NCBI GenBank assembly: GCA_020639155.1 | Contig: JACKHF010000001.1 | Span: 1,963,889-2,027,888, forward strand | Source of the DNA: Phycisphaeraceae bacterium | GTDB lineage: Bacteria > Planctomycetota > Phycisphaerae > Phycisphaerales > UBA1924 | Direction: 5' to 3' | Length of the DNA: 64,000 nucleotides | In this document: one piece after another, positions 20,846 to 62,226 of the stretch | How the letters are laid out: each line of letters begins with the position of its first letter | How positions within the stretch are numbered: the stretch's first letter is position 1 | The notes under the pieces: model-generated | Database searches by the model: none | What the model saw: only the letters and a program-made list of their open reading frames with translations | What the model was told of the DNA's origin: nothing | Translations under genes and position numbers: made by a program

Positions 20846-20849
20846 TTCC

Positions 20850-37149: not shown

Positions 37150-37749
37150 TTATCCCCGCAACTCACACGTGATGGTAAATGTTGATGCGCTGGTGTTCTG
37201 GACCATGCTTCTGCTTGTGCCGTTCAACGTCACGCGCTGGAAGATCCCGCTCTTCTCAAGCTTCAGTACAAATCCTGTAACATCGGTCGGTGCCAGCCCG
37301 GCACCGTCAAGCTCCAGCACATACACATCCTGCGTGCGTGTACTGTTGGCGGCCGTCTCCTTCGATTTGGGGTCGTGTGCTTCGAGCGGATCAACCCGAA
37401 CACCGCGCAGCACAACCCGATCCCCCTTGATTCGTGCCAGATAATCCAGCAGCAGGCTCCAGTCCGGCTGATCACCGATTTCGCGGAGAAGATTCAGCTT
37501 TGCTTCTGCCTGCTTGAGCTGTGCGATCGCATCTTCAAGGCGCTGTGATTCCTTCCTGGCGCTCGCTTCAGTATCGTCGATAGCCTTGCATACGCGGGCC
37601 TGATCGTCCTGTCGATAGGAGTATCCAGCACCTGACACAGATGCGACAACGATGGTGTACGCAATACCAACAGAGATCCAGAACCGTGTGCGAATACGGC
37701 GTTCGCGCGATTCAATGCGAATCTTTGGTACAAGATTGATGCCGCTCAT
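37150..37749 (-). CDS. pilN: PilN-like type IV pilus assembly protein
   Basis: N-terminal INLVP (the INLLP-like PilN motif), a TM and a coiled-coil. Confidence 0.6.
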   Translation of the reverse strand: MSGINLVPKIRIESRERRIRTRFWISVGIAYTIVVASVSGAGYSYRQDDQARVCKAIDDTEASARKESQRLEDAIAQLKQAEAKLNLLREIGDQPDWSLLLDYLARIKGDRVVLRGVRVDPLEAHDPKSKETAANSTRTQDVYVLELDGAGLAPTDVTGFVLKLEKSGIFQRVTLNGTSRSMVQNTSASTFTITCELRG

Positions 37750-38813: not shown

Positions 38814-40024
38814 ACCATCCGTGTCATGTCAAACAGAGGAAGGAACAGACTCATCGCCATGGAGCCGACAAGTATGCCCATTGCGATCAGAATTAACGGC
38901 TCAAGAACAGACGTGACTGAACGCACCTGCGCATCACTCTCTTCATCAAGGATGTCTGCAACGCTGAGCAGCGAAGGACCGAGCTCGCCTGCGGTTTCAC
39001 CCGATCGCACCGCTTCACAGAATGATTCATTGACAAGCCGGCTCTTGCAAAAAGCATCGCTGAGCGGATCGCCCTGCGTGACAGCTTCGGTCGCTTTGTC
39101 GAGCAGAGCGCGGTAGTGATAGTTTCCGAACGATGCTTTGACGAGCTGCGTTGCTTCGTTGATCGGTATCTTGTTCTGCACAAGCACTCCGAGCACACGC
39201 GCAAGCCGGGCAGTGGACACGTGCCTGACAACGCGACCCAGGATGGGGACATGCACCGCGAGCGTCTGGATTGTCCGCTTTGCGTTCTGTGTGCGGTACC
39301 ACAACGAGACTGTAACCACACATGTGATAATTGTACCGACCAGAATAAAGAAGTGGGTACGGGCGGTCTCGCTCAGCCACATCACAAATGTTGTGCTCGG
39401 TGGAAGCGTCACACGCAGTGATTTAAAGAGAGAGTCAAACCGAGGGATGACCAGCAGCAACATCAGAATAAGAACAGTCACGCACACGACAACCAGCAGC
39501 ATTGGATAGATAGCTGCACTGACGATCGATCGGCGCAGCTGGACCTGCTTGTGAATGAGCTTGCTGATTCTGCCCATCATGTCCTTCAACCTGCCCGTCG
39601 CTTCGCCCGCATGCACAAGGCTGATGACAACAGGATCGAAGTACTTCTTGTGCTGGCGCATGGATTCTGAGAGTGGTTGCCCGCGCTCGACACGCTCGCG
39701 TATGTCTGAAACAGTTCGCTTCCAAGTATCATCACGGGCTTGGCGCTCGCACGATTCGAGTGCATCTGTCACGGTCGCACCTGCACTGAGCAGCACGAAC
39801 ATATTTCGTGTGAAGGAGAGCACCAGGTTGCTTGTATTGCGCCCGAATGGGAGACGCTTCATGACCTTTTTCAGGTCCTTGCCCTGCTCGCCTTCCTCGT
39901 GGATGGTCGTAACAAACGTGCCCTTCTTGCGGAGCAGCTCGGTACCGTCATTTATGGTGTTGGCTTCGATGACGCCTGCGCACGCAGCGCCGTCACGGTC
40001 AAAGCCTTTGTAGACAAGTTTCAT
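38810..40024 (-). CDS. Type II secretion system F family / PilC platform protein
   Basis: Duplicated GspF domain with three TM segments, 404 aa. Confidence 0.8.
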   Translation of the reverse strand: MKLVYKGFDRDGAACAGVIEANTINDGTELLRKKGTFVTTIHEEGEQGKDLKKVMKRLPFGRNTSNLVLSFTRNMFVLLSAGATVTDALESCERQARDDTWKRTVSDIRERVERGQPLSESMRQHKKYFDPVVISLVHAGEATGRLKDMMGRISKLIHKQVQLRRSIVSAAIYPMLLVVVCVTVLILMLLLVIPRFDSLFKSLRVTLPPSTTFVMWLSETARTHFFILVGTIITCVVTVSLWYRTQNAKRTIQTLAVHVPILGRVVRHVSTARLARVLGVLVQNKIPINEATQLVKASFGNYHYRALLDKATEAVTQGDPLSDAFCKSRLVNESFCEAVRSGETAGELGPSLLSVADILDEESDAQVRSVTSVLEPLILIAMGILVGSMAMSLFLPLFDMTRMV

Positions 40025-41787
40025 GCGGCCCTCCCGAGTGTCTCAGTGGGCATGTCCGTGTCGGCATCGTCGATATCGGAATCATGGCTGTGGGTGACGC
40101 GCAGCACTTCCTCAAGGCTTGTCTTTCCAGCACGGGCAAGCGCGATGCCTTCCTCACGCAGTGTCAGGCAGCCCTCATCACTCATCTGCAGACGCAGTGT
40201 GTGTGTCGGTGCGGATTTGTGGATCATGCGCCGTAGTGTTGGGGTGACTTCCATCACCTCGTAGATGCCAGATCGACCCTTGAAGCCGGTATCGTGGCAG
40301 TGCTGGCAGCCCAGTCCCTTCTGGAACGGCTGGCGCAAGTCGTTGCTGATGCGAGCTTCTTCCAGCACGTGATCTTCGGGGAAGTACTTTGTCCTGCATT
40401 GTCCGCAGACGGTACGCGCGAGTCGTTGGGCAACGGCACCGTTCAGAGCGGTTGAGACAAGGTACGGCTCAATGCCCATGTCAAGCAGACGAGCAACAGA
40501 TCCTGGTGCGTCGTTGGTGTGCAGAGTTGCGAGCACGAGGTGACCCGTGAGTGATGCTCTGACTGCAACGCGCGCAGTCTCTTCATCGCGAACCTCGCCG
40601 ATCATCACCACGTCCGGATCCTGACGAAGAATGCTCCGCAGTGCGGACGCGAACGTCATCCCAATGGAATCATGCACCTGTACCTGATTTACCATGTCGA
40701 GCTGATACTCAACAGGATCTTCGACGGTGACGATATTTCGCTCGGGTGTTTGGATGAGTTCCAGTGCCGAGTAGAGTGTTGTGGTCTTGCCCGATCCGGT
40801 TGGTCCTGTGACAAGAATCATGCCGTGAGGCTGATGAAGCATGTGCTTGAATCGTTCGAGCGCTTCGGCGCGGAAACCGAGGTCTTCCAGGCGCACACGA
40901 AGATTCTCCTTGTCGAGAATGCGCACCACGACCTTCTCACCGAGCAGTGTCGGAATGCTCGACACGCGAAGATCGATCTCGCGACCCTCAGCAACGATGC
41001 GCACACGCCCGGCTTGTGGAAGACGTTTTTCCGCAATGTCCATCTTTCCGATGACCTTCACGCGCGAGATAATTGCTGGGTGCAGACCGATCGGTGGACG
41101 CATCAGCTCGCGGAGCGTGCCGTCAATGCGATATCTGATGCGCGTGCCACGCTTGTCAGGTTCGATGTGGATATCGCTTGCGCCATCGCGGATTGCTGTC
41201 AGCAGCGCGACGTTCACGAGATTGACGATGGGACTCCCATCGATCATGTTCTCGAGTTCGGGGATCGTCTCGTCCTCGATCGACTCGCGCTCAATGATTG
41301 AGACGTCCGAATCGACGAGTTGCGTCATAAACCCGTCGACGTCAACTTTGCCGCCAGCGTACTTCTTGATGTACTCACGAATGTCCGGCTCAAGCGCAAG
41401 CACGGGTCTGATCTCAAGCTCTGTCAGACTGCGGAGTCGATCAATTGTGTGCAGCGACTGTGGTTCAGCCATTGCAACAGTGAGTGTGCCATGCACGCGA
41501 AACAGTGGGAGTGCGCGGAGTTCCAGAGCCTCCTGCTCACCAATCAGTTCGAGTAGTGCTGGATCGATAAGACCGTGGCGCAGCACGCATCCGGGCACAC
41601 CGATACGCGCAGAAAGCGTCTGCTCGAGCACAGCTCGTGTAATGATGCCCTGCTCGAGGAGAATCTCGCCGAGGAGCTTGCCGGTGGCGCGCTGGATAGC
41701 GAGTGCATCGCGCACCTGGTTCTCGGTCACCTGCCCCGCTTGAACGAGCAGCTCACCAATACGTAATCTCGGCGCTTCGTGCATCAA
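40021..41787 (-). CDS. GspE/PilB-family type II/IV secretion ATPase
   Basis: Walker A (VTGPTGSGKTT), Asp and His boxes, a tetracysteine C-terminus (CGQC...CQHC), 588 aa. Confidence 0.9.
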   Translation of the reverse strand: MMHEAPRLRIGELLVQAGQVTENQVRDALAIQRATGKLLGEILLEQGIITRAVLEQTLSARIGVPGCVLRHGLIDPALLELIGEQEALELRALPLFRVHGTLTVAMAEPQSLHTIDRLRSLTELEIRPVLALEPDIREYIKKYAGGKVDVDGFMTQLVDSDVSIIERESIEDETIPELENMIDGSPIVNLVNVALLTAIRDGASDIHIEPDKRGTRIRYRIDGTLRELMRPPIGLHPAIISRVKVIGKMDIAEKRLPQAGRVRIVAEGREIDLRVSSIPTLLGEKVVVRILDKENLRVRLEDLGFRAEALERFKHMLHQPHGMILVTGPTGSGKTTTLYSALELIQTPERNIVTVEDPVEYQLDMVNQVQVHDSIGMTFASALRSILRQDPDVVMIGEVRDEETARVAVRASLTGHLVLATLHTNDAPGSVARLLDMGIEPYLVSTALNGAVAQRLARTVCGQCRTKYFPEDHVLEEARISNDLRQPFQKGLGCQHCHDTGFKGRSGIYEVMEVTPTLRRMIHKSAPTHTLRLQMSDEGCLTLREEGIALARAGKTSLEEVLRVTHSHDSDIDDADTDMPTETLGRAA

Positions 41788-46463: not shown

Positions 46464-47126
46464 TTGATTGGATCAGTCATGATGGCTTCCAGAAGACAGA
46501 ACAAAAGAGCTCGTGCGTTCACACTGATCGAGTTGACGATCGCTATGACACTGGCAGCGCTGCTGATGGGGTCTATTGTCTCTGTCATTGTTGTATCAAG
46601 TAAGTCGCTTGATGTTGCCACTTCGCAGGCGGTTACTGGCAACGTATCAGAAGCAATGCTCAGAGTAACCAGCGATCTTCGTCAGGCAAAATCGTTCACT
46701 ATTGTGACTTCAACATCCGTCACGTTCACTGTTCCCGATCGCACGGGCGATGGGATTGATGACAAGATAGCCTACGTTTGGTCCGGAACAAAGGGTGATC
46801 CGCTCACGTTCCAGCTCAACTCCAGTAGCGCAACAACAGTGATCGAGGATGTCCGCGATCTCTCATTCGAGTATCTCCTGGGAAAGGATGTTGCATGGGC
46901 TGGTGCATCATCGCCAGATCCCGGTATCACGATCAACGTTGGTGGGGTCGGCGTTACTCTTGGCAATGGCAATGGCAATGGCAATGGCAATGGCAATGGC
47001 AATGGCAATGGCAATGGCAATGGCAATGGCAATGGCAATGGCAATGGCAGCAGTAGCAGCAGTAGCAGCAGTAGCAGTAGTAGCAGTAGTAGCAGTAGTA
47101 GCAGTAGTAGCAGTAGCAGCAAGTGA
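46464..47126 (+). CDS. Pseudopilin-like prepilin-type protein with a C-terminal (Gly-Asn)14-(Ser)~25 tail
   Basis: RAFTLIELTIAMTLAALLMGSIVSV prepilin N-terminus. The C-terminus is encoded by microsatellite DNA. Confidence 0.65.
   Translation: MIGSVMMASRRQNKRARAFTLIELTIAMTLAALLMGSIVSVIVVSSKSLDVATSQAVTGNVSEAMLRVTSDLRQAKSFTIVTSTSVTFTVPDRTGDGIDDKIAYVWSGTKGDPLTFQLNSSSATTVIEDVRDLSFEYLLGKDVAWAGASSPDPGITINVGGVGVTLGNGNGNGNGNGNGNGNGNGNGNGNGNGNGSSSSSSSSSSSSSSSSSSSSSSSSK
46962..47120 (+). repeat. Simple sequence repeat: (GGCAAT)x14 followed by about 25 AGC/AGT triplets
   Basis: Counted directly: GGCAAT units from 46962 to 47045, then AGCAGT/AGCAGC units to about 47120, all inside the CDS. Confidence 0.9.
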
Positions 47127-47138
47127 TAACACAACTAT

Positions 47139-47774
47139 ATGGTTTTAATGTCACACAATGTAGCTTGCCGTGCGTTCACGATCGTCGAAGTCGTGATGTC
47201 GCTGTTGATTGTTTCACTGGTGCTTCTCGCAGGATTGCGCACCGCTGCTGCAACTGGCAGTGAGGCTCGCATCCGACGTGAGCGCGATATTGGCCGATTG
47301 CTTGCCGACCAGCTTCTTGCTGAGATCATGGCCCTTCCGTCGGAAGACCCGAACGAAACGCCGGTATTCGGTATGGAACTGGATGAAACGGGGACATCCA
47401 GACGCGACGTTCTCGACGACATCGACGATTACAACGGCTGGACCGAATCGCCCGTGCGAGCAGCAGACGGCACAATCATCGCCCAGTACTCGCAGTGGCG
47501 CAGGGATGTGGAAGTTGACTGGATCAGCACGATCGTGCCAATCGCTGTGCCAACAGACACAAGACTGAAGGGTGTCACCGTGACAGTCTACGCACCATCC
47601 GGCAAGTCGTACACACGCACCGCGCTTCGCTCGATGCACGAATATCGCGACAGGTCCGATGACGAACAGGTCGTGCGTATTGGCGTGTCGCTCACCGCAG
47701 GTGTGGATGGAAGGAATATCACCGAGACGGCGGCATCTGTTGTGGTTCTGGAAAACTCTCCCGAGGGCAACTGA
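47139..47774 (+). CDS. Pseudopilin-like prepilin-type protein
   Basis: RAFTIVEVVMSLLIVSLVLLAGL N-terminal prepilin motif. Confidence 0.6.
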   Translation: MVLMSHNVACRAFTIVEVVMSLLIVSLVLLAGLRTAAATGSEARIRRERDIGRLLADQLLAEIMALPSEDPNETPVFGMELDETGTSRRDVLDDIDDYNGWTESPVRAADGTIIAQYSQWRRDVEVDWISTIVPIAVPTDTRLKGVTVTVYAPSGKSYTRTALRSMHEYRDRSDDEQVVRIGVSLTAGVDGRNITETAASVVVLENSPEGN

Positions 47775-47782
47775 GCAGATCA

Positions 47783-49144
47783 ATGATTACCAACGGTTCC
47801 AAATCCTTCTCTCACCCACGCAGAGGCGCTGCATATGTGCTTGTGCTTGGTGCGAGTCTGCTCGTGTTCATCATCGGTGTCAGTGCGCTGGCAGCGATGA
47901 CCGTGACATCTGAAGGGATTGATCAACTCAACGACGCGCAATCGGCTGAGCAGCTTGCCCCCTCGGGCATTCAGTGGGCGATGACCAAGCTCTCCTCAAA
48001 TACCAACTGGCGCAGCGTGTATTCCAACAACACATATGGTGGTTCGATCGGGTTTGGCGGTGGTACTTTCAAATGGAAGGTGCGTGATCTGAGCGACAGC
48101 AATCTGGCAGACGATGCAGGCGATGAGGTGCAGATCGTTTCGCAGGCAACGGTGGGAGATGCAGTCCGCACATATGCAGCGACCTACGTCCATCCGAACT
48201 CGCCGCTCGAACTTCTCATGAGCAACATCCATGCGGGTGCCGATATCGACATCAAGAGTGGCGCAACACTCCAACTCTTTGAAGATGACGAACTGATCAG
48301 CGCCAATGGTTCATGGAAGAACGATGGCCGTCTCGAAGGAAACGCTCGCACAACATCATTGTCCGGTGGTGGCGGATCGGGAACAGCTTCGGGCACAGTG
48401 GTGACCAACGCAAGTACATTAACGATGCCTTCATCCGCGTTTGTTGACCGACTCATTGCTCGTGCGACAACACTCACTTACTCCGGTGATATCGATACCA
48501 AACTCATTGCCCCGGGGTTGAACGAGTATGACCTCGATGCACCGACCGGTTCGAATATCTGGTATCTCAACACGGGTGGTCAGGATATCACAATCAAAAA
48601 CTCGCGCATCCAGGGAACGCTCATCATCAACGTTGGGAACTCCAAGTCGGTCCGAATTACAAATCGTGTGCTCATCGAGCCGGACTCGCCGTCCATGCCA
48701 TCGCTGATTGTGATAGGAAATCTTGAGATTCAAACCGATGGTCCGTCGCTCGGGCTCGCTGCACTCCTCGCGTTACCTCTTGGTGATCTACGAACCACAC
48801 TCGCGGCAACATCAAAACCATTGTCAGAGAGCACACTGTCGCACAACTTCAATCCACCCACAGCACCCTACCAAGGGGGATCGGATACCGATAAGGCTGA
48901 TCGATATCCGTGCATGATGAACGGGTTGATATATGCAACCAGCGATGTCGTCTTCAGCAATACCAACTGGGTTCTTGGGTTAGTGATAGCTGGACAGGAT
49001 GTGGATGTTGACGGCGGCACAACAGCAGTGTTCCACGACACAATCTACTACGACAACCCCCCCGATGGCATGGTGGAGTACGACACATCAACATTTGTGC
49101 TGATGAACGGCACGTGGGGTCGAATCGGCGCAAATGACGAATAA
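47783..49144 (+). CDS. Hypothetical pilus-associated protein (GspK-like position), N-terminal TM
   Basis: AAYVLVLGASLLVFIIGVSALAA hydrophobic N-terminus, a beta-rich Gly/Thr/Asn-rich body. It follows two pseudopilin genes. Confidence 0.4.
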   Translation: MITNGSKSFSHPRRGAAYVLVLGASLLVFIIGVSALAAMTVTSEGIDQLNDAQSAEQLAPSGIQWAMTKLSSNTNWRSVYSNNTYGGSIGFGGGTFKWKVRDLSDSNLADDAGDEVQIVSQATVGDAVRTYAATYVHPNSPLELLMSNIHAGADIDIKSGATLQLFEDDELISANGSWKNDGRLEGNARTTSLSGGGGSGTASGTVVTNASTLTMPSSAFVDRLIARATTLTYSGDIDTKLIAPGLNEYDLDAPTGSNIWYLNTGGQDITIKNSRIQGTLIINVGNSKSVRITNRVLIEPDSPSMPSLIVIGNLEIQTDGPSLGLAALLALPLGDLRTTLAATSKPLSESTLSHNFNPPTAPYQGGSDTDKADRYPCMMNGLIYATSDVVFSNTNWVLGLVIAGQDVDVDGGTTAVFHDTIYYDNPPDGMVEYDTSTFVLMNGTWGRIGANDE

Positions 49145-49249: not shown

Positions 49250-50410
49250 TTGTACATGAAGCATAACGTGGGTAATGCGATGGTCTTCCCTGCGAACGCA
49301 CAGGTTCGCCATCATCTTATGGAGATGCTCGGAGATCGTGCGAGATCGGTCCCGAATAAGGAAAAACGCGAGCACTTTCGATACCCCCTCCCTTCGATCA
49401 TTGAGAAGGCAGAGATCCAGCACCCGGGTGGGAGTAAGGTTCATGCTGAAGTGTTGGTGTACAACCTCAGCTCTGGTGGTATCGGCTTTGTCTACACAGG
49501 GTACCTTCACAGAAGTACAGAGATCACAATCACATTGCACACGTTGCGCGGCGAACTTCGCGAGTTGAGCGGCAAGGTCGCATGGTGCGCATTGTTGACG
49601 CGCCAGTTTCATGCTGTTGGAATGCAGTGCGATGAGAAAAGTGATCCAAGAGACTATATTGAACCATCGATTATCGCCGTCCACAATGTTGAGGATGAGT
49701 CAGCACGGCGAAAAGCTCTCCGAGGTCGCGTTCTTCTTGTTGAAGATGACAAGATGGAAGCGAATCTTGTGAAAATGCTGCTCTCAGACACCTCATTGCG
49801 CGTCGATGTGGCATCAGATACGGGCGAGGCACTCGATTGTCTTCGCACGGAATCCTTCGACATTGTGCTGGCCGATTCAGTGCTGCATCGGGATACGCGA
49901 GTTGATCAGTATGTGCCAAGGATGAGAGACGAAGGGTTTACGGGACCGATTGTCCTCTTTCTCCAACAGCGAGACAATATTGACCCGAATGGCAGTTTGC
50001 CTGGCGCATGCACAGATGTTGTTGCAAAGCCACTGAACCAAGACGAGTTGATCGCAGTTATCGAGAGGGCTTTGCGCCACTCCCATGATCCAACCTGCAG
50101 CACTGATCTCATCTATTCAACAATGAAGGATGCGTTGAAGTTCACTTCATGGATTGCAGAATACATCGAAGTCGTGCGTAAAAAAGCGAAACTCATCGAA
50201 GAGGCCCTTCGTTCAGAGAATGTTGAGCTGGCAATGGATGAATGCTCCGCTATCTGCGCAACGGGTGTGAGCTACGGATTTGAGATTCTGTCAGAAGCAG
50301 CCCAGGAAACGATTACAGCTCTGAAATCATCTGCTTCATGCACCGAGTCCGCCGCAGAAATACGCAAGCTGCTGCGAGTAATAAAGCGACTGAGTATTCA
50401 GGGATACTAA
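49250..50410 (+). CDS. PilZ domain - receiver domain protein with a C-terminal helical (HPt-like, His-less) domain
   Basis: RxxxR (REHFR) and DxSxGG-like (NLSSGGIGF) PilZ motifs. Receiver: LLVEDD ... IVLADSV ... VVAKP. Confidence 0.6.
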   Translation: MYMKHNVGNAMVFPANAQVRHHLMEMLGDRARSVPNKEKREHFRYPLPSIIEKAEIQHPGGSKVHAEVLVYNLSSGGIGFVYTGYLHRSTEITITLHTLRGELRELSGKVAWCALLTRQFHAVGMQCDEKSDPRDYIEPSIIAVHNVEDESARRKALRGRVLLVEDDKMEANLVKMLLSDTSLRVDVASDTGEALDCLRTESFDIVLADSVLHRDTRVDQYVPRMRDEGFTGPIVLFLQQRDNIDPNGSLPGACTDVVAKPLNQDELIAVIERALRHSHDPTCSTDLIYSTMKDALKFTSWIAEYIEVVRKKAKLIEEALRSENVELAMDECSAICATGVSYGFEILSEAAQETITALKSSASCTESAAEIRKLLRVIKRLSIQGY

Positions 50411-50412
50411 AC

Positions 50413-53400
50413 TCACTCCAGCGATGGTCTGCCGTTGCGACGTGGCTCCCAGCGCTGCTGACGCTGGAGATGGAACTGCACGTTCACAAACTCGAAGTCG
50501 TCAAGATCGGCTGTGCCACGACGTGATCGGATGTCGATCTTGTTCTCGCCAAGCTGCAACCAGTCAGCGGGCACATTTGCGCGGAACTGTCCGAAGCTGC
50601 CGTCACGCGGTGATCCATCAAGACGCTTTGGCAGCAGTCGATCATTGATCCAGATCTCGTTCGGCGCCTGCGTGCCGCGTGCAAGCAAACGGATCTCTGC
50701 ACGTGTCAGGTCATCGCCAATCTGATCTTCGGTGAGCTCGAATGTCTGCACCCAGCGCAGTCCTTCAGATTTCTTCTGGAACTGCGAGTTGATGCGACCC
50801 GAGAACTCGTCATTACCGAGATGGTGTACATCGGGGTCTGCCTCAAGCACAATGACATCGGAATCAATCGGCGCAAGCATGAATACCACGCGTACGCCGC
50901 GTCTGACATCTTCGGAGCGAATGTTTGTTGACTCTGGTGTGTATCCGTCAGCCGACGCGGAGACCGCGACATTGTCTGGCAGATCCTCGGGCTCAAGCTC
51001 GAACTGTCCGTTGACGTCAGTCAGATATACAAGCTCGTTGCCCTCATCAAGATCAAGTTTCACCATCGCATCGCGGATCGGTCTGCGCGTGCGTGCGTCG
51101 ATCACCATGCCGGTGATCAGGCCCGGATGTTTTTCCGGATCTGCCGATGGTTCCGGTTCCGGATCAGGCTGTTCCGCTGGCAATGCGATGTCGAACGCTT
51201 CCTCGCCGATCTCCGGGATGCTGCCAAGTTCGGTCAGCGCCGGCGGCATGATGTCGAACTCGGGCATCGCATCTGGTGTGTAGGCTTGCTCGCTCAGGGC
51301 CTCGACATGCTCGCGACCAAGTTCTGTTGGCTTCAGGTCGGCACGCATCGTGTCGAGTGCGTCACGCTCCACATCGGCTTGCAACGAGGGGAGCGGAATC
51401 ATGCTCGCATCAGCGATCGCATCGTTTGGTTCATTGACAGCCGATGGCTTTGCGTTATTGCTGTCTTCCGCAATAGGGAGTTGCACATCGTTCAGCTCTG
51501 AAAGCACAGGCGTGTCGGGAGCATCAAACGATGTCGTATCGAATGCGGGGAGTGCGATATCCATGCCCAGTGGGGCGGAGCTGTCAACACTGGAGAGAAT
51601 ATCTGTCGCAAGGGAATCTGTTGGCAGCGGTGTTGCAGTATCCTCGATCGCGAACGTTGCATTCGTGATTGGTGTGTACGTTTCTGTTGAGGTCAGTTCC
51701 GCTGGTGTGATCTCAAGTACTGCGTCCGGGGCAATGGCCATGCTCTGTTCGGGTGAAGCTGCGGCAGGTGTGCTGGTATCGAGCTTCGCATCGAACGCAG
51801 CCAACGGCATCGGTGTCATTGCTGCGGGATTCTCAATTTCGGAGATTGCAGACTCCGGCAGTGCGGTCTCTGCGCTGGATTCTGCAACGCTGGTCTTTGA
51901 TGCAAGCACCCGATCTGCCTCGGCATTGACTGACTCCGGAGCGATTTCTGTCGGGCCAGCAGCGATCGGCGTGAGGGATTCTGTCTCGGCGCGAGCCTGC
52001 GATTGCGCATCAACTCCAGTCGGAACAACGTCAAGCACAACCTCGTTCTGTGCAACAGCAGCCTGAGTTTGTGGCGTTTGCGTGTTGACGGTCTCGGTTG
52101 GCAACTGCGACACCGGAGCCTGTGCCGCCATCTGCGGTCCCTGCACAACGATTGCATCGGTTGACTGTGGTGTAGCGAATGCCTGCGTTGGCCCAGCCTG
52201 CACAGCATCGGGTGTCAGTGTGGCGTTGGATGCCTGCATCGGCGCCGGTGCGTCGTTCTGTGCGCGTGGTGTCTGCGAGTCGGCGGTTGCTGTGACATGC
52301 ACAGCCTGCTCACTGGTCGCAAGTGCAGCGGCTGGTGTGGGCTCGGCGGAGTTCACCTGCGATGATTGTGGAACCTGAGCTTCAGCACGCGCTGTCATCT
52401 GCGGGTTCTGTGCCGAGGTATCTGCTGCGTGTGTCTGCTCAAGCGACTGCGATGGTCCCGCCTGCACAGCTTCTGGATTCATCGCAGCATTTGCAACCTG
52501 CATCGGCGTTGGTGCTTCGCTCGCAGCGCGAGGTGTCTGTGCATCGGCACGCGCCTCGACACGCACGTTCTGCTCATTGACAGCGACTGCTGCGTCGGGT
52601 GTGGGTTCTGCAGAGTTGACCTGCGTTGACTGTGGCACCTGTGTTTCCGCACGAGCCACCATCTGTGGGTTCTGCGCGCTCGTATCTGTTGCCTGCTTCT
52701 GCTCAAAGGCTTGCGCAGCTTCGGCCTGGGTCGCGGTTGGAGTGAGTTCTGTTGCAGCGACTTCAAGCGGTTCGATCTCGGCTTGTTCTGCCTGCGGCGT
52801 CGAAGGAGACTCCGTCGCAGCGATCTCCATCTGCGACATCTCGCCACGCAACTGTCGGGTGATCTCGTTACTTACAGTCCGCACGACGATCGGCTGCTGT
52901 GCACCAACATTGCGATCAGAAGTCCCGTCAAGCGTGCCGTAGACATTCCATACCGCCATGCCGCCGAACAGAAGCATGTGGGCAATGACCGACACAATGA
53001 AACACTTGGCGATCAGCGAGAGCGGCTTCCAGCGCTTTGCCCACATCTCTGTCGTGCGAAGCCAGCCGAGCAGCGCCAGCAGCACAAGTAATAAAAGCAC
53101 CGTTGCAACCATTGGCCACACGCGACTGAGCCAGTCCATGAACGATAAACGCGCCTGTCCTGGGTCGTACTCGGTCACAACCTCACGTGCAACCGTGCGA
53201 TAAATATCGTACGAAACCTTCCCCGCATCGGGATTGTCATCTGAATCGATCCATGGGGTGCGATCAGACGAGAAGTGGAGTTCGAACCCGTCGAAGCTGA
53301 GCGTCGGATCAAGCTCGTTGTGTGGTGAGTTGACAGACTGTCCAAGATTGACAAGGTTGATCAGCCCGTCCCGCGCAAGCAGTGTGTCGAGTGTGTTATC

Positions 53401-54294
53401 TTCGTTTGCAACATCGTCCTCGCTCAACTCGATGGGTTGCTCAGCGACAATCCCTTCAGGAGAGATACGGGAGCGGAAGATATCAAACCCACCAAAGCTC
53501 TCCAGCCGATCAGATGCAAAGTAGATGTAATCACCCGCTGGGCTGAATGCTGGCGAGATGTCGTCATAATCTGTTGAGAGCGACACCAGCATGCGCGCAG
53601 GTATCGTTGTGCCATCTGCGAGTGCTGCAATGTACAGGTCAAAGTCGCCCTGAAACATGCCTTGGCGCACGTTGGTTTGTTCTGGTGCAACATCGGGTCG
53701 GTTTGTTGCAAAGACGAGCGATGCATTGTCTGGTGAGATCGCGGGGGCGTACTCGTGGTATGGTGTGTTGACACCTTCGCCCAGATTCTCTGCCGGGAGC
53801 CATCCCTCCTCGCCTTTGCGTGCAATCCACAGGTCGTACCCGCCCTGCCCGCCAGAACGGTTTGAGGCGAACACGATCGCCTTGCCATCAAGCGTCGGCT
53901 GCGGCCCGAGATCATCGCGATCACTGTTTACTGTGTCCAGCGCGGCGGGTTCGGTCCATCCAAAGCCGTTACGCTGCACAAAGTAAATGTCCGCATCGCC
54001 GCGTTCGCTGGCGCGCGAGAAGAACAGAATCGTGCCGTCGGCACTGAGTCCGGGGTCAAGCTCATTCCGTGGCGAGTTAATCCCGCGTGCAAGCGCAGTG
54101 GCGGGTTTCCACAGAATGTCGCGTGGCGCAGCAACTGAAGCGGATTCGCGGATCGTATCGGTGGGAGCGTTGTCGGTGTAGTAGGTTCCTGAAGACTGCG
54201 CGCGCTGCCACGCGCCAAGAGTGGCAAACGCAAGCCCGCCGACTACGACCAGCGCGACGAGCAGTACCAGAGTTGTGCGTATGAGTTTGCCCAC
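50413..54294 (-). CDS. 1293-aa chimeric envelope protein: N-terminal TM, about 5 PD40 (TolB-like) beta-propeller repeats, two TM helices, about 550-aa Ala/Gln/Thr/Pro-rich disordered spacer with 88-aa tandem repeats, CarboxypepD_reg-like domain and a C-terminal domain
   Basis: PD40-type repeats (VNSPRNELDPGLSADGTILFFSRAS, VNSDRDDLGPQPTLDGKAIVFASNR, YFASDRLESFGGFDIFRS, VNSPHNELDPTLSFDGFELHFSSDR), hydrophobic segments at about residues 395-450, ITGMVIDARTRRPIRDAMVKL (CarbopepD_reg-like). Immediately downstream of exbB-exbD. Confidence 0.65.
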   Translation of the reverse strand: MGKLIRTTLVLLVALVVVGGLAFATLGAWQRAQSSGTYYTDNAPTDTIRESASVAAPRDILWKPATALARGINSPRNELDPGLSADGTILFFSRASERGDADIYFVQRNGFGWTEPAALDTVNSDRDDLGPQPTLDGKAIVFASNRSGGQGGYDLWIARKGEEGWLPAENLGEGVNTPYHEYAPAISPDNASLVFATNRPDVAPEQTNVRQGMFQGDFDLYIAALADGTTIPARMLVSLSTDYDDISPAFSPAGDYIYFASDRLESFGGFDIFRSRISPEGIVAEQPIELSEDDVANEDNTLDTLLARDGLINLVNLGQSVNSPHNELDPTLSFDGFELHFSSDRTPWIDSDDNPDAGKVSYDIYRTVAREVVTEYDPGQARLSFMDWLSRVWPMVATVLLLLVLLALLGWLRTTEMWAKRWKPLSLIAKCFIVSVIAHMLLFGGMAVWNVYGTLDGTSDRNVGAQQPIVVRTVSNEITRQLRGEMSQMEIAATESPSTPQAEQAEIEPLEVAATELTPTATQAEAAQAFEQKQATDTSAQNPQMVARAETQVPQSTQVNSAEPTPDAAVAVNEQNVRVEARADAQTPRAASEAPTPMQVANAAMNPEAVQAGPSQSLEQTHAADTSAQNPQMTARAEAQVPQSSQVNSAEPTPAAALATSEQAVHVTATADSQTPRAQNDAPAPMQASNATLTPDAVQAGPTQAFATPQSTDAIVVQGPQMAAQAPVSQLPTETVNTQTPQTQAAVAQNEVVLDVVPTGVDAQSQARAETESLTPIAAGPTEIAPESVNAEADRVLASKTSVAESSAETALPESAISEIENPAAMTPMPLAAFDAKLDTSTPAAASPEQSMAIAPDAVLEITPAELTSTETYTPITNATFAIEDTATPLPTDSLATDILSSVDSSAPLGMDIALPAFDTTSFDAPDTPVLSELNDVQLPIAEDSNNAKPSAVNEPNDAIADASMIPLPSLQADVERDALDTMRADLKPTELGREHVEALSEQAYTPDAMPEFDIMPPALTELGSIPEIGEEAFDIALPAEQPDPEPEPSADPEKHPGLITGMVIDARTRRPIRDAMVKLDLDEGNELVYLTDVNGQFELEPEDLPDNVAVSASADGYTPESTNIRSEDVRRGVRVVFMLAPIDSDVIVLEADPDVHHLGNDEFSGRINSQFQKKSEGLRWVQTFELTEDQIGDDLTRAEIRLLARGTQAPNEIWINDRLLPKRLDGSPRDGSFGQFRANVPADWLQLGENKIDIRSRRGTADLDDFEFVNVQFHLQRQQRWEPRRNGRPSLE
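52150..52700 (-). repeat. Tandem duplication, about 264-bp unit x about 2.1 copies, inside the giant gene (encodes 88-aa repeats)
   Basis: CCTGCACAGC recurs at 52197 and 52461 (264-bp period). Flanking near-identical blocks were read directly. The protein repeats are AQNPQM(V/T)ARAE(T/A)QVPQS(T/S)QVNSAEPTP... Confidence 0.7.
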
Positions 54295-54385
54295 CGTGTG
54301 GTCCTTGCCCCTCCAACCGAGATCAGTTCGAGCGTCTGTCCATCAGTCCAATCAACAATCCTGCAACGGGCATTTGCACATTGCA

Positions 54386-54802
54386 TCAGTTTTCAGGCAC
54401 AGTATCCAGAAACGGCTCCTGAATGCCTGCCAGCTTACATATGTCCAGTGCGCGGGCGACCATGCCATACGATGCGTCCTTGTCGCCACGCACAACAACC
54501 TTCTGCTCCGGATTCTGTTCGAGCGCGTTGGTCACGATGGATTTTAATCCATCCTCGTCAACAGTCTGCCCGTTTGCGATGATCCGACCATCGTTGGTAA
54601 CATTTACAATCAGTTCTCGTGCAGCTTGCGAGATCGGGCCTGATGCTTCGGAGATCGGTAGTGCGATCTGCATCTCGCGTTCCGACTGATGGAACGTTGT
54701 TGCCACCAGAAAGAAGATCAGCAGCAGGAACACCATATCGATGATCGGTGTCAGCTCGATCGAAGGCGATGAATCACTGGATGTATCTTTCTTGATCAAC
54801 AT
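54386..54802 (-). CDS. ExbD/TolR family biopolymer transport protein
   Basis: 138 aa, an N-terminal TM (IDMVFLLLIFFLVATTF), a periplasmic domain. Confidence 0.8.
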   Translation of the reverse strand: MLIKKDTSSDSSPSIELTPIIDMVFLLLIFFLVATTFHQSEREMQIALPISEASGPISQAARELIVNVTNDGRIIANGQTVDEDGLKSIVTNALEQNPEQKVVVRGDKDASYGMVARALDICKLAGIQEPFLDTVPEN

Positions 54803-54808
54803 CCCGTG

Positions 54809-55609
54809 TTACGCTCCCGCGCCGACATGCGCTGCCTCTGGTTTCGGCTTGTCTGATTCGCGATGTGAATCTGTGAGAGTCAACTTACCCTTGCCACCTG
54901 AGGCAGCCATAGCGTAGTTGAGCAGGAACTTCGTGCCGATCTGATCCATCATCTGCACAAGGCGTTCAATCCGCGAGGAAAGCCAGTGGAAGCAGATCAA
55001 CGCAGGAATCGCAACGAGCAGGCCCGCAGCGGTTGTGACCATCGCCTCGTAAATACCCTCAGCGAGGAGTTCTGTCTTGCCGAGCGCGTCCGAGTTTGTC
55101 GCGACGGTCTGGAATGCGGTAATCATGCCGAAGATCGTGCCGACGAGTCCGAGCAACGGCGCGACCGCAGCAACAACGGAGAGCACACGCAGGTACTTAC
55201 GAAGGACCGAGACCTCGCGCTCTGCGACGACCGCCATGTGCTTCTCTACGACATCGACCGGTCTGCCAAGCTGCTCAGCACCAGAGTGGATGATGCGCGC
55301 GATCGGGCTTGCGTGTGACTTGCAGAATGATTCGGCAGCCTTCCCGTTCCCAGGTGGATTGCCGAGCGCCTTCTCAAGCCCTTCCTCAAACCCATTGGGA
55401 ATGATCTTTGATCTGCGCAGCACAATCAGGCGCTCAATAAACACCGTGACCATGATGAGCGATGCGATCCCGATCGGGATCATCATCACGCCACCTTTGA
55501 CAGCAAAGTCCCACACCGAACCGATGAGATTCCCGCCGCCTGCCTGCGCAGCACCGGGCTGGGTTGCTGTGTCCTGTATCATCGCCAGCACGCTCATGTG
55601 CATCTGCAA
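54809..55609 (-). CDS. MotA/TolQ/ExbB proton-channel family protein
   Basis: Three TM helices and a conserved C-terminal TM2-3 region (LGLVGTIFGMITAF). Confidence 0.8.
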   Translation of the reverse strand: MQMHMSVLAMIQDTATQPGAAQAGGGNLIGSVWDFAVKGGVMMIPIGIASLIMVTVFIERLIVLRRSKIIPNGFEEGLEKALGNPPGNGKAAESFCKSHASPIARIIHSGAEQLGRPVDVVEKHMAVVAEREVSVLRKYLRVLSVVAAVAPLLGLVGTIFGMITAFQTVATNSDALGKTELLAEGIYEAMVTTAAGLLVAIPALICFHWLSSRIERLVQMMDQIGTKFLLNYAMAASGGKGKLTLTDSHRESDKPKPEAAHVGAGA

Positions 55610-55672
55610 ACTCCGTTTTCTTTGATAGTTCCTGCGTTCGCACTCGTGCTGCGTCGCACACTCTGTCTCTGC

Positions 55673-58600
55673 TTATCCTCTGCCGGGAACGTTGCGAGGC
55701 CGTAACTGCTCAACCTTCTGCGCTGCCCGCTGCGCCCACTCGGTATCGCCGAATCGATCGACGATAGACTGGTACTGCTCGCGAGCCTGATCGAATCGAT
55801 TCAGCTTCTCGAAGCACCGCCCCGCTTCGTATAGCGCAGCGGCGCTCCATTCCGGGTACGCATGGAGGATGTCCACACGGATGAACTCAGTGACTGCCTC
55901 GTCGAGTTTGTCGATCGCGAACAGGCACTCGCCAATCTGGAACTGCGCGCGAGCAGCGGTGAGGCCCTCGTGCCCGTCAACAACGCGCCGATACGCCTTG
56001 ATCGCATCCTCGTGCTGGCCCTGATGCTCCTTTGCCCAGCCAATCCCGAACTGCGCTTTGAACCACATCTCGTGGTCTGGGTACAACTTCAGAAATGTGG
56101 TGTATGACGTTTCGCTGTTGGACCACTGCTCGGTCTCGCCCTGAGCTTCGCCCAAACGGATGTATGCAACAGCCGCATTCTCGTGCTCGCCATGGTCCTT
56201 GATCAGACGTTGGAGATGTGGAATGGCATCGCCGTGGCGATTCAGGCGCATCAGCGCCTCGCCGCAAAGCAGTTCGGCCGATGCCATGAGCTTGCTCTGC
56301 GGATACTGCTTCCAGAACTGGTCGAGCGCGTTGGCGACGATATCAAACTTCTCGAGTTTGTGCCCGGTAACGCCGCGACGGTACGCTGCTTGCTCGCGCA
56401 CCGATTCGGGGATCTTTGTCTGATCCCGGCGGATGAGCTCATCAAGCTGGTTCAGCGTTGGCAACGCCTGCTCAAACTGGTTCGCATCCATCTGGATCGA
56501 TGCAAGATCGAGCAGCGCGTGCGCACGCAGACGAGGCTCGATGTTGGCATCATTCAGCAATGTACGCAGCGCACTTGCCGACTCGTCCGATTTCTTGAGC
56601 GCTCGCAGACTCCATGCTCGCTCATACGCGAGATTCGCGCGCGTCGGCTCGTCAAGCTGCGCATCGTTCATTGCAAGAAGCGCATCGACTTCGTTGACAG
56701 CAGCTTCAGATTTACCCGAGCGTGAGAGTGCGATCGATCTGCTGATCCGAGCGCGAATACCAAGTGCTCCGCCCGTCTTTGTGACCGGTTCAAGCGTTGC
56801 TGCAGCTTGCGCAAACTCACCTCGTGCAAGGAGGGCCTCGCCTTGCTGGAGCTGCGCCTCGGTGGCAAGTTCAATTGGCCCGTTCTCAGCTGCACGAGCA
56901 AACCACTCCGTTGCAGCTTCAAGGTTGCCCTTGCGCTGTTCGATTGAGCCGAGGTGACGCATCGCAAACGCAGCAAACCGCGACCCCTCGTCCGCATCAA
57001 CAACGGCGAGCATGGCTTTTTCCGCCTGCTCGTCGTTGCCCATGTCGATGAGCGCCTGCCCACGTTCGAACATGGCTTGCAATGTGTGGACGCTCTCATC
57101 CATTGCAATGATCGCATCAAAGCACTGGATCGCTTCTCCAGGGCGATTCTGGCGCACACGCGAAAGTCCGAGCTTCAGCAGCGCGTCGTCAGCACCGAAC
57201 GCGTTTGGATCTGCTTCGAGATAGTCCTTGAAATGCCGCTCGGCGTTCGGCCACTCGCTGCGCGCAAACGCGATGTCGCCGAGTGCGCGCAAAGCAGAGC
57301 GGAACTCGGGCTTGGTTGATGCGCCTCTGGTAATACGGGCGAGTTCCTGCACAGCCTGATCATCACGATTCTGGCGATGATGCGCCATGCCAATACGGAA
57401 ATGCGCTGTGTCACCCCGATCGTCATTTGGGAACTCATTCAGCAGCTTTGCATATCCCGCGATCGCATCATCCCATCGACCCGCGAGAAAATCCGCTTCA
57501 GCACCGACAACGATCACATCTGCCATCAACCGATGGTTTGCGAACTTGCCCGCGTACTCACTCGCGAGCGACTTCGCACGCTCGTATCCCTCGCGTGAGA
57601 GTTCGGACGATGCTTCGAGGTACATCGCTTCCGGAACAAGACGATGCTCCGGGAAGGACCGGCGATAGGCGCCAGCGGCATCGATTGCACCGTCCACGTC
57701 ACCAGCACGTGAAAGAGCAACCGCACGGTCGTACATCATCTCGGGTTTGAGCGAGCTGTCAGGGTAGTTCTCGATCGCCTTCTCAAGCGTGTCGGCTGCA
57801 CGACTCGGCTCATCAAGGCGCATCTCGCACTTCGCAATCCAGTACATCGCGTCGTCGTGCAGTGCCTTTTCCTGTGTTTTCAGGACGCGCTCAAAGTCCT
57901 GCTTTGCAGGCGCGAAGCGGTCGTTATCGAGATGGATGCGTCCTCGCATGAAGACTGCGCCGGGTGCTGCCGTTGACGACCCGAACTGCTCGATCACCTC
58001 CTGCGCCAGTGTCTCGGCTTCCGCAAGATTCCCCTTGTCATGAAGAAGTTGCGATAGAGACAGCTTTGCTTGCGGCAAGAACGACTCGACACCGCGTGCA
58101 ATGGCGTCGCGGTACGCACGGATTGCATCATCAGGACGGTTGACTGCCTGCAGCGCACGAGCGCGAAGGAATGTGGCCTGATCAGCAATGGGACCTGCAT
58201 TCTCACGCTTGAGCACCTCTTCGAGATGTGGAAGCGATTCCGATTCCTTGTGCTGTGCCATCAGCGCCATGGAGTGAAACAGTTCTGCGCGTGATCGCTT
58301 TGCGCTGTCAGGGAAATCCCGCTCAAGCCGCGTCGCCGCTGCGATCGCTTCGTCGAGGTCGTTCGTACGATATCGGGATTCTGCGAGCATCGATAATGCA
58401 TCATCAAGCGACGCATGATCGGGGAACCGCTCGATCAGCACTGCAAACCGGTCACCCGCTTCCTTGTACTTGCCGAGAAGCACGAAGCTGTGACCGCGGA
58501 GGAGCTCTGCATCACCAGCGAACTCAAAGGTTGGTGTAGTTGCTGGCATTTCCAGCATGGCAGCAGCATCTTCGTACTGCTGCAGTCGGTAGTAGCACAC

Positions 58601-58840
58601 ACCGAGCCCGTATCGAGCGGTGACGACCTGCTCCGGATTGGAACTGCTCTCAAGGAACTTCTCGTATTCCGGCACCGCGAGCTTGTACAACTTGCGATTG
58701 AGCAATCCGTTGGCGGTATTGAGCAGCTTGTCGTTCTGATCGCGAGTCTGTGAGAATGCGATAGTCGGCGTAATCCCGACGAGTGCAGCGCTGGCGAGAA
58801 GCCCCGTTACTTTCGATCCGCGCGTACGTCGACCCATCAT
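55673..58840 (-). CDS. Secreted TPR-repeat protein (1055 aa)
   Basis: Signal peptide (LLASAALVGITPTIAFSQ) followed by more than 20 TPR-like repeats (recurring A..Y/F...G....A motifs). Confidence 0.75.
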   Translation of the reverse strand: MMGRRTRGSKVTGLLASAALVGITPTIAFSQTRDQNDKLLNTANGLLNRKLYKLAVPEYEKFLESSSNPEQVVTARYGLGVCYYRLQQYEDAAAMLEMPATTPTFEFAGDAELLRGHSFVLLGKYKEAGDRFAVLIERFPDHASLDDALSMLAESRYRTNDLDEAIAAATRLERDFPDSAKRSRAELFHSMALMAQHKESESLPHLEEVLKRENAGPIADQATFLRARALQAVNRPDDAIRAYRDAIARGVESFLPQAKLSLSQLLHDKGNLAEAETLAQEVIEQFGSSTAAPGAVFMRGRIHLDNDRFAPAKQDFERVLKTQEKALHDDAMYWIAKCEMRLDEPSRAADTLEKAIENYPDSSLKPEMMYDRAVALSRAGDVDGAIDAAGAYRRSFPEHRLVPEAMYLEASSELSREGYERAKSLASEYAGKFANHRLMADVIVVGAEADFLAGRWDDAIAGYAKLLNEFPNDDRGDTAHFRIGMAHHRQNRDDQAVQELARITRGASTKPEFRSALRALGDIAFARSEWPNAERHFKDYLEADPNAFGADDALLKLGLSRVRQNRPGEAIQCFDAIIAMDESVHTLQAMFERGQALIDMGNDEQAEKAMLAVVDADEGSRFAAFAMRHLGSIEQRKGNLEAATEWFARAAENGPIELATEAQLQQGEALLARGEFAQAAATLEPVTKTGGALGIRARISRSIALSRSGKSEAAVNEVDALLAMNDAQLDEPTRANLAYERAWSLRALKKSDESASALRTLLNDANIEPRLRAHALLDLASIQMDANQFEQALPTLNQLDELIRRDQTKIPESVREQAAYRRGVTGHKLEKFDIVANALDQFWKQYPQSKLMASAELLCGEALMRLNRHGDAIPHLQRLIKDHGEHENAAVAYIRLGEAQGETEQWSNSETSYTTFLKLYPDHEMWFKAQFGIGWAKEHQGQHEDAIKAYRRVVDGHEGLTAARAQFQIGECLFAIDKLDEAVTEFIRVDILHAYPEWSAAALYEAGRCFEKLNRFDQAREQYQSIVDRFGDTEWAQRAAQKVEQLRPRNVPGRG

Positions 58841-61351: not shown

Positions 61352-62029
61352 TCAGCAGCAGGTTCGTTTGCGTCTTCCAAAGAGTCCTGCGAGGGCTGCG
61401 CATCCCATCAGGCTCGCAGCGGGTGTCGGCACATTTTCAGGTGGTGGGGTGACTGGAGGTGTCACAGGCGGCTGATGCGGAGGGAACGTTGGCGGGAAAA
61501 ATGGAGGCTTTGTGGGCGGTTGATACGGTGGGTAGGAATGGGGTTTTGTTAGAGGGAAAGGTGGATGGGTGAAGGGAGGAATGATTGGAGGCGTGTGCTT
61601 TGAAGGTTGATTCGAGTGCGAAGGTTCCGACGTGTGCTTGATGTGATTGAAGACCACGGGTTTGGATGCAGACGGCGAGTGTGAATATTTGGTATTGAAA
61701 GCGGATGCCTGCAAAGTGGGAGTGCTGAATGAGCTGTGAGCGTTCCCTGTAGACGAGATCGCCTGCCTGAACTTTGTCGAGTTCTTATCAGAACTCCATG
61801 TGGTCTTCCTGCCATCTGCGTGGTTCTCAACACTCAGCGATGTGGCTTTGAACCCGATATCCAGGATTGTGCTTGCATAAATATGGCTTGCGTTCTCAGC
61901 AAGCAGTGTTGAAGACTCTCCCGGGAATGTGCCGGGTGACATGTACAGCATCGCAGATGCGTTTGACGCTCCACACAACAATGCGACAATGACAGCACGT
62001 TGAACAAACAAAAAACTCAGCCTCCACAA
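61352..62029 (-). CDS. Hypothetical secreted Pro-rich protein with a PEP-CTERM-like C-terminal sorting tail
   Basis: Signal-peptide-like LWRLSFLFVQRAVIVALLCGASNASA (a TTG start is assumed), a Pro-rich stretch (PPFTHPPFPL...PPVTPPVTPPP), and a C-terminal VPTPAASLMGCAALAGLFGRRKRTCC (P-x-P, hydrophobic helix, Arg cluster). The region is lower in GC than its flanks. Confidence 0.4.
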   Translation of the reverse strand: MWRLSFLFVQRAVIVALLCGASNASAMLYMSPGTFPGESSTLLAENASHIYASTILDIGFKATSLSVENHADGRKTTWSSDKNSTKFRQAISSTGNAHSSFSTPTLQASAFNTKYSHSPSASKPVVFNHIKHTSEPSHSNQPSKHTPPIIPPFTHPPFPLTKPHSYPPYQPPTKPPFFPPTFPPHQPPVTPPVTPPPENVPTPAASLMGCAALAGLFGRRKRTCC

Positions 62030-62226
62030 TGTCCCGACGTACGCGGGTTGGGCAACTATCCTTCTCCCCTGAAGTTGGCCCAGCGAACAGGCCCGAATCT
62101 TGGCTGGTCTTGTCTGACATCGCAACCCGGACTCCGCTGAAAAAGCACAAAAAAACACTTTTATAACCCTATAACTCTTGAGTTGAATACAATCCAAACA
62201 CATTATCCACATTGAGCTTTTGATGT

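Follow-up and report, generated by a model that had tools for sequence, protein, structure and literature searches.

What kind of machine is encoded where an inner-membrane proton motor stands beside a giant envelope protein whose head is unlike that of TonB or TolA? The question is raised by a four-gene cassette in a 64,000-nucleotide stretch of DNA (hereafter the window) from a Phycisphaeraceae bacterium (assembly GCA_020639155.1, contig JACKHF010000001.1, positions 1,963,889 to 2,027,888), which encodes a TPR protein, an ExbB-type protein, an ExbD-type protein and a PD40 protein of 1293 amino acids (aa), here called the giant protein. To our knowledge, Phycisphaerae divide without FtsZ, and the planctomycetal envelope is in general poorly understood. 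In diderm bacteria, energy from the inner membrane reaches the outer envelope by two textbook routes, Tol and Ton; for Planctomycetes, which have an enlarged periplasm, Tol-Pal has been called 'largely reduced' (PMC8871954). We conclude that the four genes probably constitute a Tol/Ton-type envelope force-transduction module, driven by the proton-motive force (PMF), with a new kind of transducer. The initial annotation of this DNA had proposed a lineage-specific Tol/Ton-like system with TolA-like and TolB-like functions fused, and that proposal is supported by an invariant S-x3-H motif in a transmembrane (TM) helix of the giant protein, a D-box-like strand behind it, conserved motor residues and a gene order kept at every locus compared, as set out below. 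The genes, taken from the open reading frame (ORF) list, and the gene that converges on them are:

55673-58840, minus strand: gene for the TPR protein (1055 aa)
54809-55609, minus strand: gene for ExbB (266 aa)
54386-54802, minus strand: gene for ExbD (138 aa)
50413-54294, minus strand: gene for the giant protein (1293 aa)
49250-50410, plus strand: gene for a protein with PilZ and response-regulator receiver domains, converging on the giant protein gene

The sizes and coordinates of the four co-directional minus-strand genes are exactly those of the initial annotation, and the gaps between them, from the TPR protein gene to that of the giant protein, measure 63, 6 and 91 bp. Because a divergent plus-strand gene starting at 59190 bounds the cassette on the TPR side and the convergent gene ending at 50410 bounds it on the other, we regard it as a four-gene unit. 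A scan of the cassette for consensus promoters and terminators gave no signal above shuffled controls. The PilZ/receiver protein (49250-50410, plus strand) may be a regulator linked to cyclic di-GMP.

The arrangement is conserved well beyond this genome. With each GTDB species represented by a single genome, a pattern scan found the head domain of the giant protein in 188 species, and 80 loci were kept; the synteny count was limited to the 62 loci that had 9 kb or more of upstream sequence. In all 62, genes for a TPR protein (~1050 aa), ExbB, ExbD and a PD40 giant follow one another in the same order and on the same strand, and the same order was seen in three of three direct contig look-ups, with unrelated flanks. 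Nearly all cassette loci are labelled as Phycisphaerae or Planctomycetota metagenome-assembled genomes (MAGs), and the cassette is kept across species at about 30-40% protein identity. The synteny of exbB-exbD with a PD40 giant, for which the initial annotation had suggested a survey, is thus found throughout these loci; of the accompanying concern that the family might be common and already annotated, the first half holds, the cassette being the norm in Phycisphaerae MAGs, and the second does not, the family being functionally unannotated. A full cassette also lies on a contig from a MAG labelled 'Alphaproteobacteria bacterium' (L028, JANQQE010000029.1); since all other labels differ, this contig is probably mis-binned or mislabelled and not a case of horizontal transfer.

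The sole recurrent extra neighbour is a gene for a BlaR1-like Peptidase_M56 protein (~1000 aa), which immediately precedes the TPR gene, in the same orientation, in ~40 of the 62 loci (e.g. L003:1-3323, L049 and L080) and itself follows a BlaI/Penicillinase_R repressor gene where the flank is long enough. The cassette may thus extend to a unit of six genes under signal control in many Phycisphaerae. The window itself holds neither a BlaR1-like nor a BlaI-like gene, by searches that included a BlaI-like query.

The two small proteins have the hallmarks of a proton motor. The 266-aa protein matches Pfam MotA_ExbB (PF01618, 2.8e-29, 101.9 bits against a cutoff of 22.9) and the 138-aa protein matches PF02472 (3.8e-29, 101.8 bits against a cutoff of 25.4); both lie above the gathering scores and agree with the earlier assignment of ExbB and ExbD. 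On sequence, the former is predicted to be an ExbB/TolQ-type proton-channel subunit with three TM helices and the latter an ExbD/TolR-type subunit. Their best NCBIfam matches were TolQ (TIGR02796, 86 bits, under the cutoff of 221) and TolR (TIGR02801, 64.6 bits, under the cutoff of 127.3), with the ExbB and ExbD models scoring below these, and all under cutoff. Across 65 orthologs, the ExbD TM aspartate D22 and the ExbB motifs G-L-x-G-T and T-A-A-G-L-x-x-A-I-P are at least 90% conserved; the positions of D22 and of the ExbB GT and TAAG motifs we take to be those of the canonical proton-path residues (a TM Asp, and Thr in TM2 and TM3). A Zorya-like or MotAB-like anti-phage defence system was ruled out, none of the four cassette proteins having a PADLOC match at E<=1e-3.

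The 1055-aa TPR protein carries an N-terminal Sec-type signal peptide, recognized by eye from the sequence, and has many TPR-family matches, including Pfam TPR_6 (7.5e-67) and TPR_16, in line with the giant secreted TPR protein first described. The YbgF/CpoB-type model TIGR02795 of NCBIfam reaches 288 bits against a cutoff of 90.1, in 11 stretches, and the protein is predicted to be periplasmic, with ~11 YbgF/CpoB-type TPR units. The CpoB equivalog model NF008068 scored 84 and did not reach its cutoff of 383, and the coiled-coil domain was absent from the best 25 of 28 Pfam matches when the protein was checked as a CpoB.

The giant protein is built from the following parts, in order from its N terminus:

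54214-54270, minus strand: TM1 or signal-anchor, aa 9-27, preceded by K/R (hydropathy scan; AlphaFold2 helix 2-33)
53155-54117, minus strand: five-bladed PD40 beta-propeller, aa ~60-380 (AlphaFold2 model)
53065-53121, minus strand: TM2, aa 392-410, followed by a short K/R-rich loop (aa 411-424)
52948-53022, minus strand: TM3, aa 425-449, with the invariant residues C431, S435 and H439
52870-52893, minus strand: strand-prone segment PIVVRTVS, aa 468-475, a candidate D-box or motor box
51145-52869, minus strand: non-conserved linker rich in A, P, T, E, Q and S, ~575-600 aa (from composition and the length range of the family)
50875-51144, minus strand: CarboxypepD_reg or transthyretin-like domain (CRD), aa 1051-1140
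50416-50874, minus strand: C-terminal beta-jelly-roll, aa 1141-1293, with a fold like that of a carbohydrate-binding module (CBM)

A homolog search with the giant protein returned 319 proteins at E<=1e-3, and all counts out of 120 given here refer to the best 120 of these 319 (E<=1e-112). They are 966-1804 aa long, their source names, where given, are Phycisphaerae or Planctomycetota, and all 120 have the same order of parts, some aligning over 98-99% of the giant protein. A protein identical to it is encoded on a 2.5-Mb Phycisphaeraceae MAG contig, where its annotation reads 'PD40 domain-containing protein [Phycisphaeraceae bacterium]'. The common architecture, the near-complete alignments and the identical MAG protein rule out a frameshift, a fusion of genes or an assembly artefact, and the large ORF is one gene, as first read, and not two or three. 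The parts originally assigned to it also stand. Pfam finds PD40 in four stretches (1.4e-22), and the AlphaFold2 model of aa ~60-380, built with a 20-sequence alignment, has five blades, in agreement with the claim of about five repeats after a signal-anchor. A hydropathy scan gave three hydrophobic helices (aa 9-27, 392-410 and 425-449), the latter two being the two further TM helices of the first description. The long low-complexity linker is likewise there, and a weak CarbopepD_reg_2 match (aa 1060-1129), together with the transthyretin-like domain and jelly-roll modelled by AlphaFold2, fits the CarboxypepD_reg domain and uncharacterised C-terminal domain that had been proposed. From the positive-inside rule we infer that the propeller, linker and head are periplasmic, that the loop between TM2 and TM3 is cytoplasmic and that TM3 runs N-in/C-out.

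The features expected of a motor client are concentrated in and just after TM3. The S-x3-H motif is present in this helix in 120/120 listed homologs, and L427, C431, S435 and H439 are invariant in the family alignment. An SHLS motif and His-mediated docking to the motor are documented for TonB, TolA and vWA-headed transducers (PMC12204202), and the S-x3-H of the giant protein matches the S and H of the SHLS docking helix of TonB and TolA. The TonB D-box (QPISVTMVTPAD) combines an alternation of hydrophobic and hydrophilic residues with one extra hydrophobic residue and is captured by the ExbD dimer (PMC10907165); in E. coli TonB it reads ISVTMVT and lies at +25 from H20. A D-box-like motif occurs at +25 to +28 from the TM3 His in 99 of the 120 listed homologs, against a background of 1.7% in linker windows, by a regular expression that was written post hoc. 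The strand motif of the family is I-(Q/R)-V-A-L-x-S, followed by a conserved Q-x-R-G (Q-I-R-G).

These features bear on the possibility that the giant protein shares an operon with the motor and is independent of it, for example as a membrane-anchored periplasmic glycan-binding or scaffold protein in which S-x3-H serves otherwise. Its head and propeller have the folds of generic binding modules. Short relatives of 507-530 aa (P0201, P0207, P0210 and P0216), which lack PD40 and run from a TM hairpin with S-x3-H through a linker and a CRD to a jelly-roll, could also be cited in its favour, one of them (P0207, L087:5988-7559) being encoded alone, away from exbBD, where it adjoins LacI-type and PSCyt1/PSCyt2/PSD1 genes. 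The tonB gene, however, is itself often unlinked from exbBD, so a short form encoded apart from these genes does not speak against a link with the motor. Given an order and strand identical in 62/62 loci at such low protein identity, polar S and H residues that are invariant within a TM helix, and a conserved strand at TonB-like spacing, we consider independence from the motor highly improbable. The existence of propeller-free short relatives suggests that anchor, linker and head form an autonomous TonB-like module, to which a propeller has been fused in Phycisphaerae.

The propeller itself has its best named matches in PorE and the CHU_0125 OmpA-like proteins (~1e-26), with scores of 91 against a cutoff of 600 for NF052230 and 92 against 620 for NF053607. 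The initial annotation had called it TolB-type; a PD40 propeller it is, but the TolB part of the claim fails on its five blades, the lack of a TolB N-domain and the PorE/CHU_0125 type of its nearest named relatives. A canonical TolB is ruled out by the five blades, the lack of a TolB_N Pfam match and the flanking TM helices, and a PorE ortholog by scores far under cutoff, a match confined to the propeller and the lack of an OmpA_C domain.

With such relatives, the cassette might instead power a surface machine, as in Agl-Glt gliding or the PorLM motor of the type IX secretion system (T9SS), the TolQR-like motor, the TPR giant and the PorE-like propeller/CRD protein moving or secreting a surface structure. 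Agl-Glt unites TolQR-like motors, large TPR proteins and TonB-like proteins. PorE, one of the two best named relatives of the propeller, belongs to the T9SS, and TPR, propeller and CRD together make up the PorE module set (PMC12204202). Against this, the PorE/CHU_0125 scores are 91-92 bits where 600-620 are called for, OmpA_C is missing, no other T9SS, Glt or outer-membrane component is conserved nearby and there is a single ExbD, which makes a surface machine distinctly unlikely.

Between TM3 and the head, the giant protein is occupied by its linker (~600 aa; A 18%, P 10%, T 10%, E 9%, Q 8%, S 8%). Linker length ranges from 317 to 1154 aa across the family, and the linker sequence gave a phmmer match in only 2 of the 120 listed homologs. 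Within it lies an 88-aa tandem duplication (aa 535-622 and 623-710; window 52165-52692, minus strand), the copies of which are 69% identical; it illustrates the drift of linker length among family members. The duplication is seen at the protein level only, TRF having found no DNA tandem repeats in the giant protein gene.

The most conserved part of the family is the C-terminal domain of ~140 aa, which gave phmmer E values of ~1e-34 to 1e-50 in 120/120 listed homologs. Its jelly-roll carries the invariant motifs HHLG(N/D), NSxFQ, DGSFG and DxDDFE. The head (aa 1045-1293) was modelled by AlphaFold2 with a 28-sequence alignment (pLDDT, the predicted local distance difference test, 91.4) as an all-beta structure in which a transthyretin-like CRD is followed by the beta-jelly-roll. 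The top Foldseek match was the PL4 rhamnogalacturonan lyase (PDB 1nkg; E 2e-9; 276 columns; domains II+III), and CBM35/36 were also matched at the level of fold. Like the head, the lyase has a tandem of an Fn3/CRD-like domain and a CBM-like jelly-roll; unlike the lyase, the head has no catalytic domain I, and the match, at 12-13% identity, is one of fold only. The sole Pfam hints for the jelly-roll were PF14683 ('CBM-like, PL4 domain III') and DUF7383, each at E 0.085, and a PDB profile search for sequence relatives of the head gave weak matches in the CRD region alone. When a jelly-roll profile was run against 1.84 billion representative proteins, 627 matches were obtained at E<=1e-3, the best 150 all belonging to the giant-protein family; we therefore regard the domain as private to this family and reject the view that it is widespread. 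Neither TonB_C (PF03544) nor TolA_III (PF06519) has a Pfam match in the giant protein, where the head model has the CRD and jelly-roll instead. Family members longer than 1400 aa (P0008, L003:8001-12836, and others) have precomputed SQHop_cyclase-like Pfam matches (PF13243/PF13249). In P0006 and P0008 the jelly-roll is followed by ~350 more residues, which means that additional modules can be attached to the head.

A head that resembles carbohydrate-binding modules could also be expected of a Ton-like uptake energiser. On this reading the giant protein would be a TonB analogue, opening a pore or transporter in the outer membrane for the import of nutrients such as polysaccharide, and glycan cargo would be handled by the CBM-like head or by the propeller. 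The ExbB/ExbD pair, the S-x3-H and the D-box-like strand point to TonB just as well, and inducible expression would agree with the BlaI/BlaR1-like pair that lies upstream in ~40/62 loci. We nevertheless judge this reading unlikely: the head lacks the TonB_C fold with which a Ton box would be engaged, no TonB-dependent receptor or outer-membrane gene is conserved nearby in the 62 loci, the motor subunits match TolQ/TolR best and not ExbB/ExbD (all under cutoff), and the partner is a CpoB-type TPR protein.

We favour the force-transduction module proposed at the outset, and infer its interactions, topology, target and physiological role from the domains identified, the conserved motifs, the predicted folds and the shared gene order. 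In this model, an ExbB5-ExbD2 motor in the cytoplasmic membrane would dock TM3 of the giant protein through S435 and H439, and the periplasmic ExbD dimer would capture the strand that follows TM3, as ExbD does the D-box of TonB. The motor would pull the extended linker across the periplasm, the length of the linker possibly being tuned to the wide planctomycetal periplasm, and the CRD and CBM-like head would hold a distal target in the envelope, probably a glycan (peptidoglycan or an outer-envelope polysaccharide) and not a TonB box. The propeller, on the same membrane hairpin, and the CpoB-type TPR protein may supply the partner roles of TolB and CpoB, or those of the PorE modules. The most likely physiological role is a Tol-Pal-like one in outer-envelope tethering and maintenance, which is favoured because the TolQ/TolR models score best, the TPR partner is CpoB-type and Tol-Pal is reported to be reduced in Planctomycetes.

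Several observations weigh against this model. Of the SHLS motif, just the S and H are conserved, the L and second S positions not being distinctive. The D-box regular expression was written after the data had been seen, and the variant in the protein of the window, PIVVRTVS (+29), fails it. The head lacks a TonB_C/TolA_III fold, both by Pfam and in the AlphaFold2 model. With both its ends anchored to the inner membrane, the propeller cannot shuttle as TolB does. The upstream BlaI/BlaR1-type pair (~40/62 loci) hints at inducible and not housekeeping expression, and no Pal/OmpA or outer-membrane barrel gene is conserved beside the cassette in the 62 loci.

A bolder version of the model is possible, although we hold it doubtful: the cassette might represent a third PMF transducer class, next to those headed by TonB_C/TolA_III and by vWA, which serves outer-envelope maintenance in Phycisphaerae and replaces the reduced Tol-Pal, with a private CBM-like head through which the motor pulls on a glycan (peptidoglycan or an outer-envelope polysaccharide), a linker scaled to the enlarged periplasm and a TolB-like propeller fused to the TolA-like anchor. 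The fusion would then be a 'Rosetta stone' that marks PorE-type propeller/CRD modules as clients of Tol/Ton motors. The family and its conserved motifs also offer a basis for annotating several hundred proteins now called 'PD40 domain-containing' or 'hypothetical'.

Other gene groups lie elsewhere in the window. A Bat/MoxR-type operon (18129-27084, minus strand), a separate envelope-associated vWA system, comprises a MoxR AAA_3 ATPase, a DUF58 protein, a BatD-like protein, two vWA proteins (one with a BatA N-terminus), an ORF with no Pfam match, BatD and a TPR-SH3 protein. Genes like those of type II secretion or type IV pili were recognized by eye from translations at 37746-41787 (minus strand) and 46464-49144 (plus strand); the set includes a GspE/PilB-type ATPase (GPTGSGKTT), a GspF/PilC-type platform protein and a PilM-like protein, with three pseudopilin-like ORFs on the opposite strand. 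One pseudopilin-like ORF of 220 aa (46464-47126, plus strand) has a prepilin-type N-terminal helix and ends in (Gly-Asn)n and then poly-Ser (46962-47126). A Pro/Thr/Ser-rich ORF (61352-62212, minus strand) with VPTP, a hydrophobic stretch and an RRKR end looks like a bearer of a PEP-CTERM-type sorting signal.

How, then, does the cassette relate to known systems? The initial annotation held that it is not the textbook Tol-Pal or TonB arrangement, and the comparison agrees, membership failing for the TonB/TolA head, TolB, Pal, the CpoB equivalog and PorE. A literature search found no paper on the giant-protein family. The likeness to TonB and TolA lies in a gene that adjoins exbB-exbD, a TM helix with S-x3-H in N-in/C-out orientation, in most homologs a candidate D-box strand ~25-28 residues past the His, and a long low-complexity, Pro-containing periplasmic spacer that leads to a globular C-terminal head. 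Unlike the lone N-terminal docking helix of TonB and TolA, that of the giant protein is the second helix of a hairpin, with a PD40 propeller fused upstream; its spacer spans 317-1154 aa, compared with roughly 100-250 aa, and its head combines CRD and jelly-roll where theirs has the TonB_C/TolA_III alpha/beta fold. The lack of that fold rules out an ordinary TonB or TolA.

With Tol-Pal, the cassette shares motor subunits that score best on TolQ/TolR, and a PD40 propeller and YbgF/CpoB-type TPR in one unit. Where TolB has six blades, the propeller has five; it is without the TolB N-domain, and is fused to the transducer and membrane-anchored; there is no Pal, and no motor or TPR model reaches an equivalog cutoff. 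Neither Pfam nor NCBIfam finds an OmpA_C domain, as in Pal, in the four cassette proteins, and no such neighbour is conserved in the 62 loci. The TPR protein is about four times the size of CpoB, and shows no CpoB coiled-coil domain among the best 25 of its 28 Pfam matches.

PorE has been described as a CpoB-TolB-CRD-Pal fusion, with a TolA/TonB-like partner speculated (PMC12204202); in the giant protein, PorE-like modules and an anchor of that type form one polypeptide. Like PorE and CHU_0125, the giant protein joins a five-bladed PD40 propeller to a CarboxypepD_reg domain, and TPR units occur within the same system. In the cassette, however, the TPR units have a giant protein to themselves, propeller and CRD are kept apart by a TM hairpin and a linker of ~600 aa, and a jelly-roll takes the place of the peptidoglycan-binding OmpA_C domain. 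The giant protein is predicted to be anchored in the inner membrane, whereas PorE-type proteins (Bacteroidota) are outer-membrane lipoproteins.

The vWA-headed SHLS transducers sit downstream of TPR-tolQ-tolR in bacteria of the Planctomycetes-Verrucomicrobia-Chlamydiae (PVC) group (PMC12204202); a term search of the same paper did not find the giant-protein family. They resemble the giant protein in an SHLS-type TM helix, a motor box (in the giant protein a candidate one), a disordered linker, a globular head that is not of the TonB kind and a context of TPR and tolQ/tolR-like genes. They differ from it in the head, which in the giant protein is a CRD with a CBM-like jelly-roll and gave no Pfam match to a vWA domain, in a linker that is several-fold shorter than that of the giant protein, in the absence of a fused PD40 propeller and in two tolR-like genes where the cassette has one. 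That vWA heads can be carried on an SHLS anchor was shown by that survey of 2025; the cassette would add a further, structurally distinct head, and would be the first case of a TolB/PorE-like propeller fused to an SHLS-type anchor.

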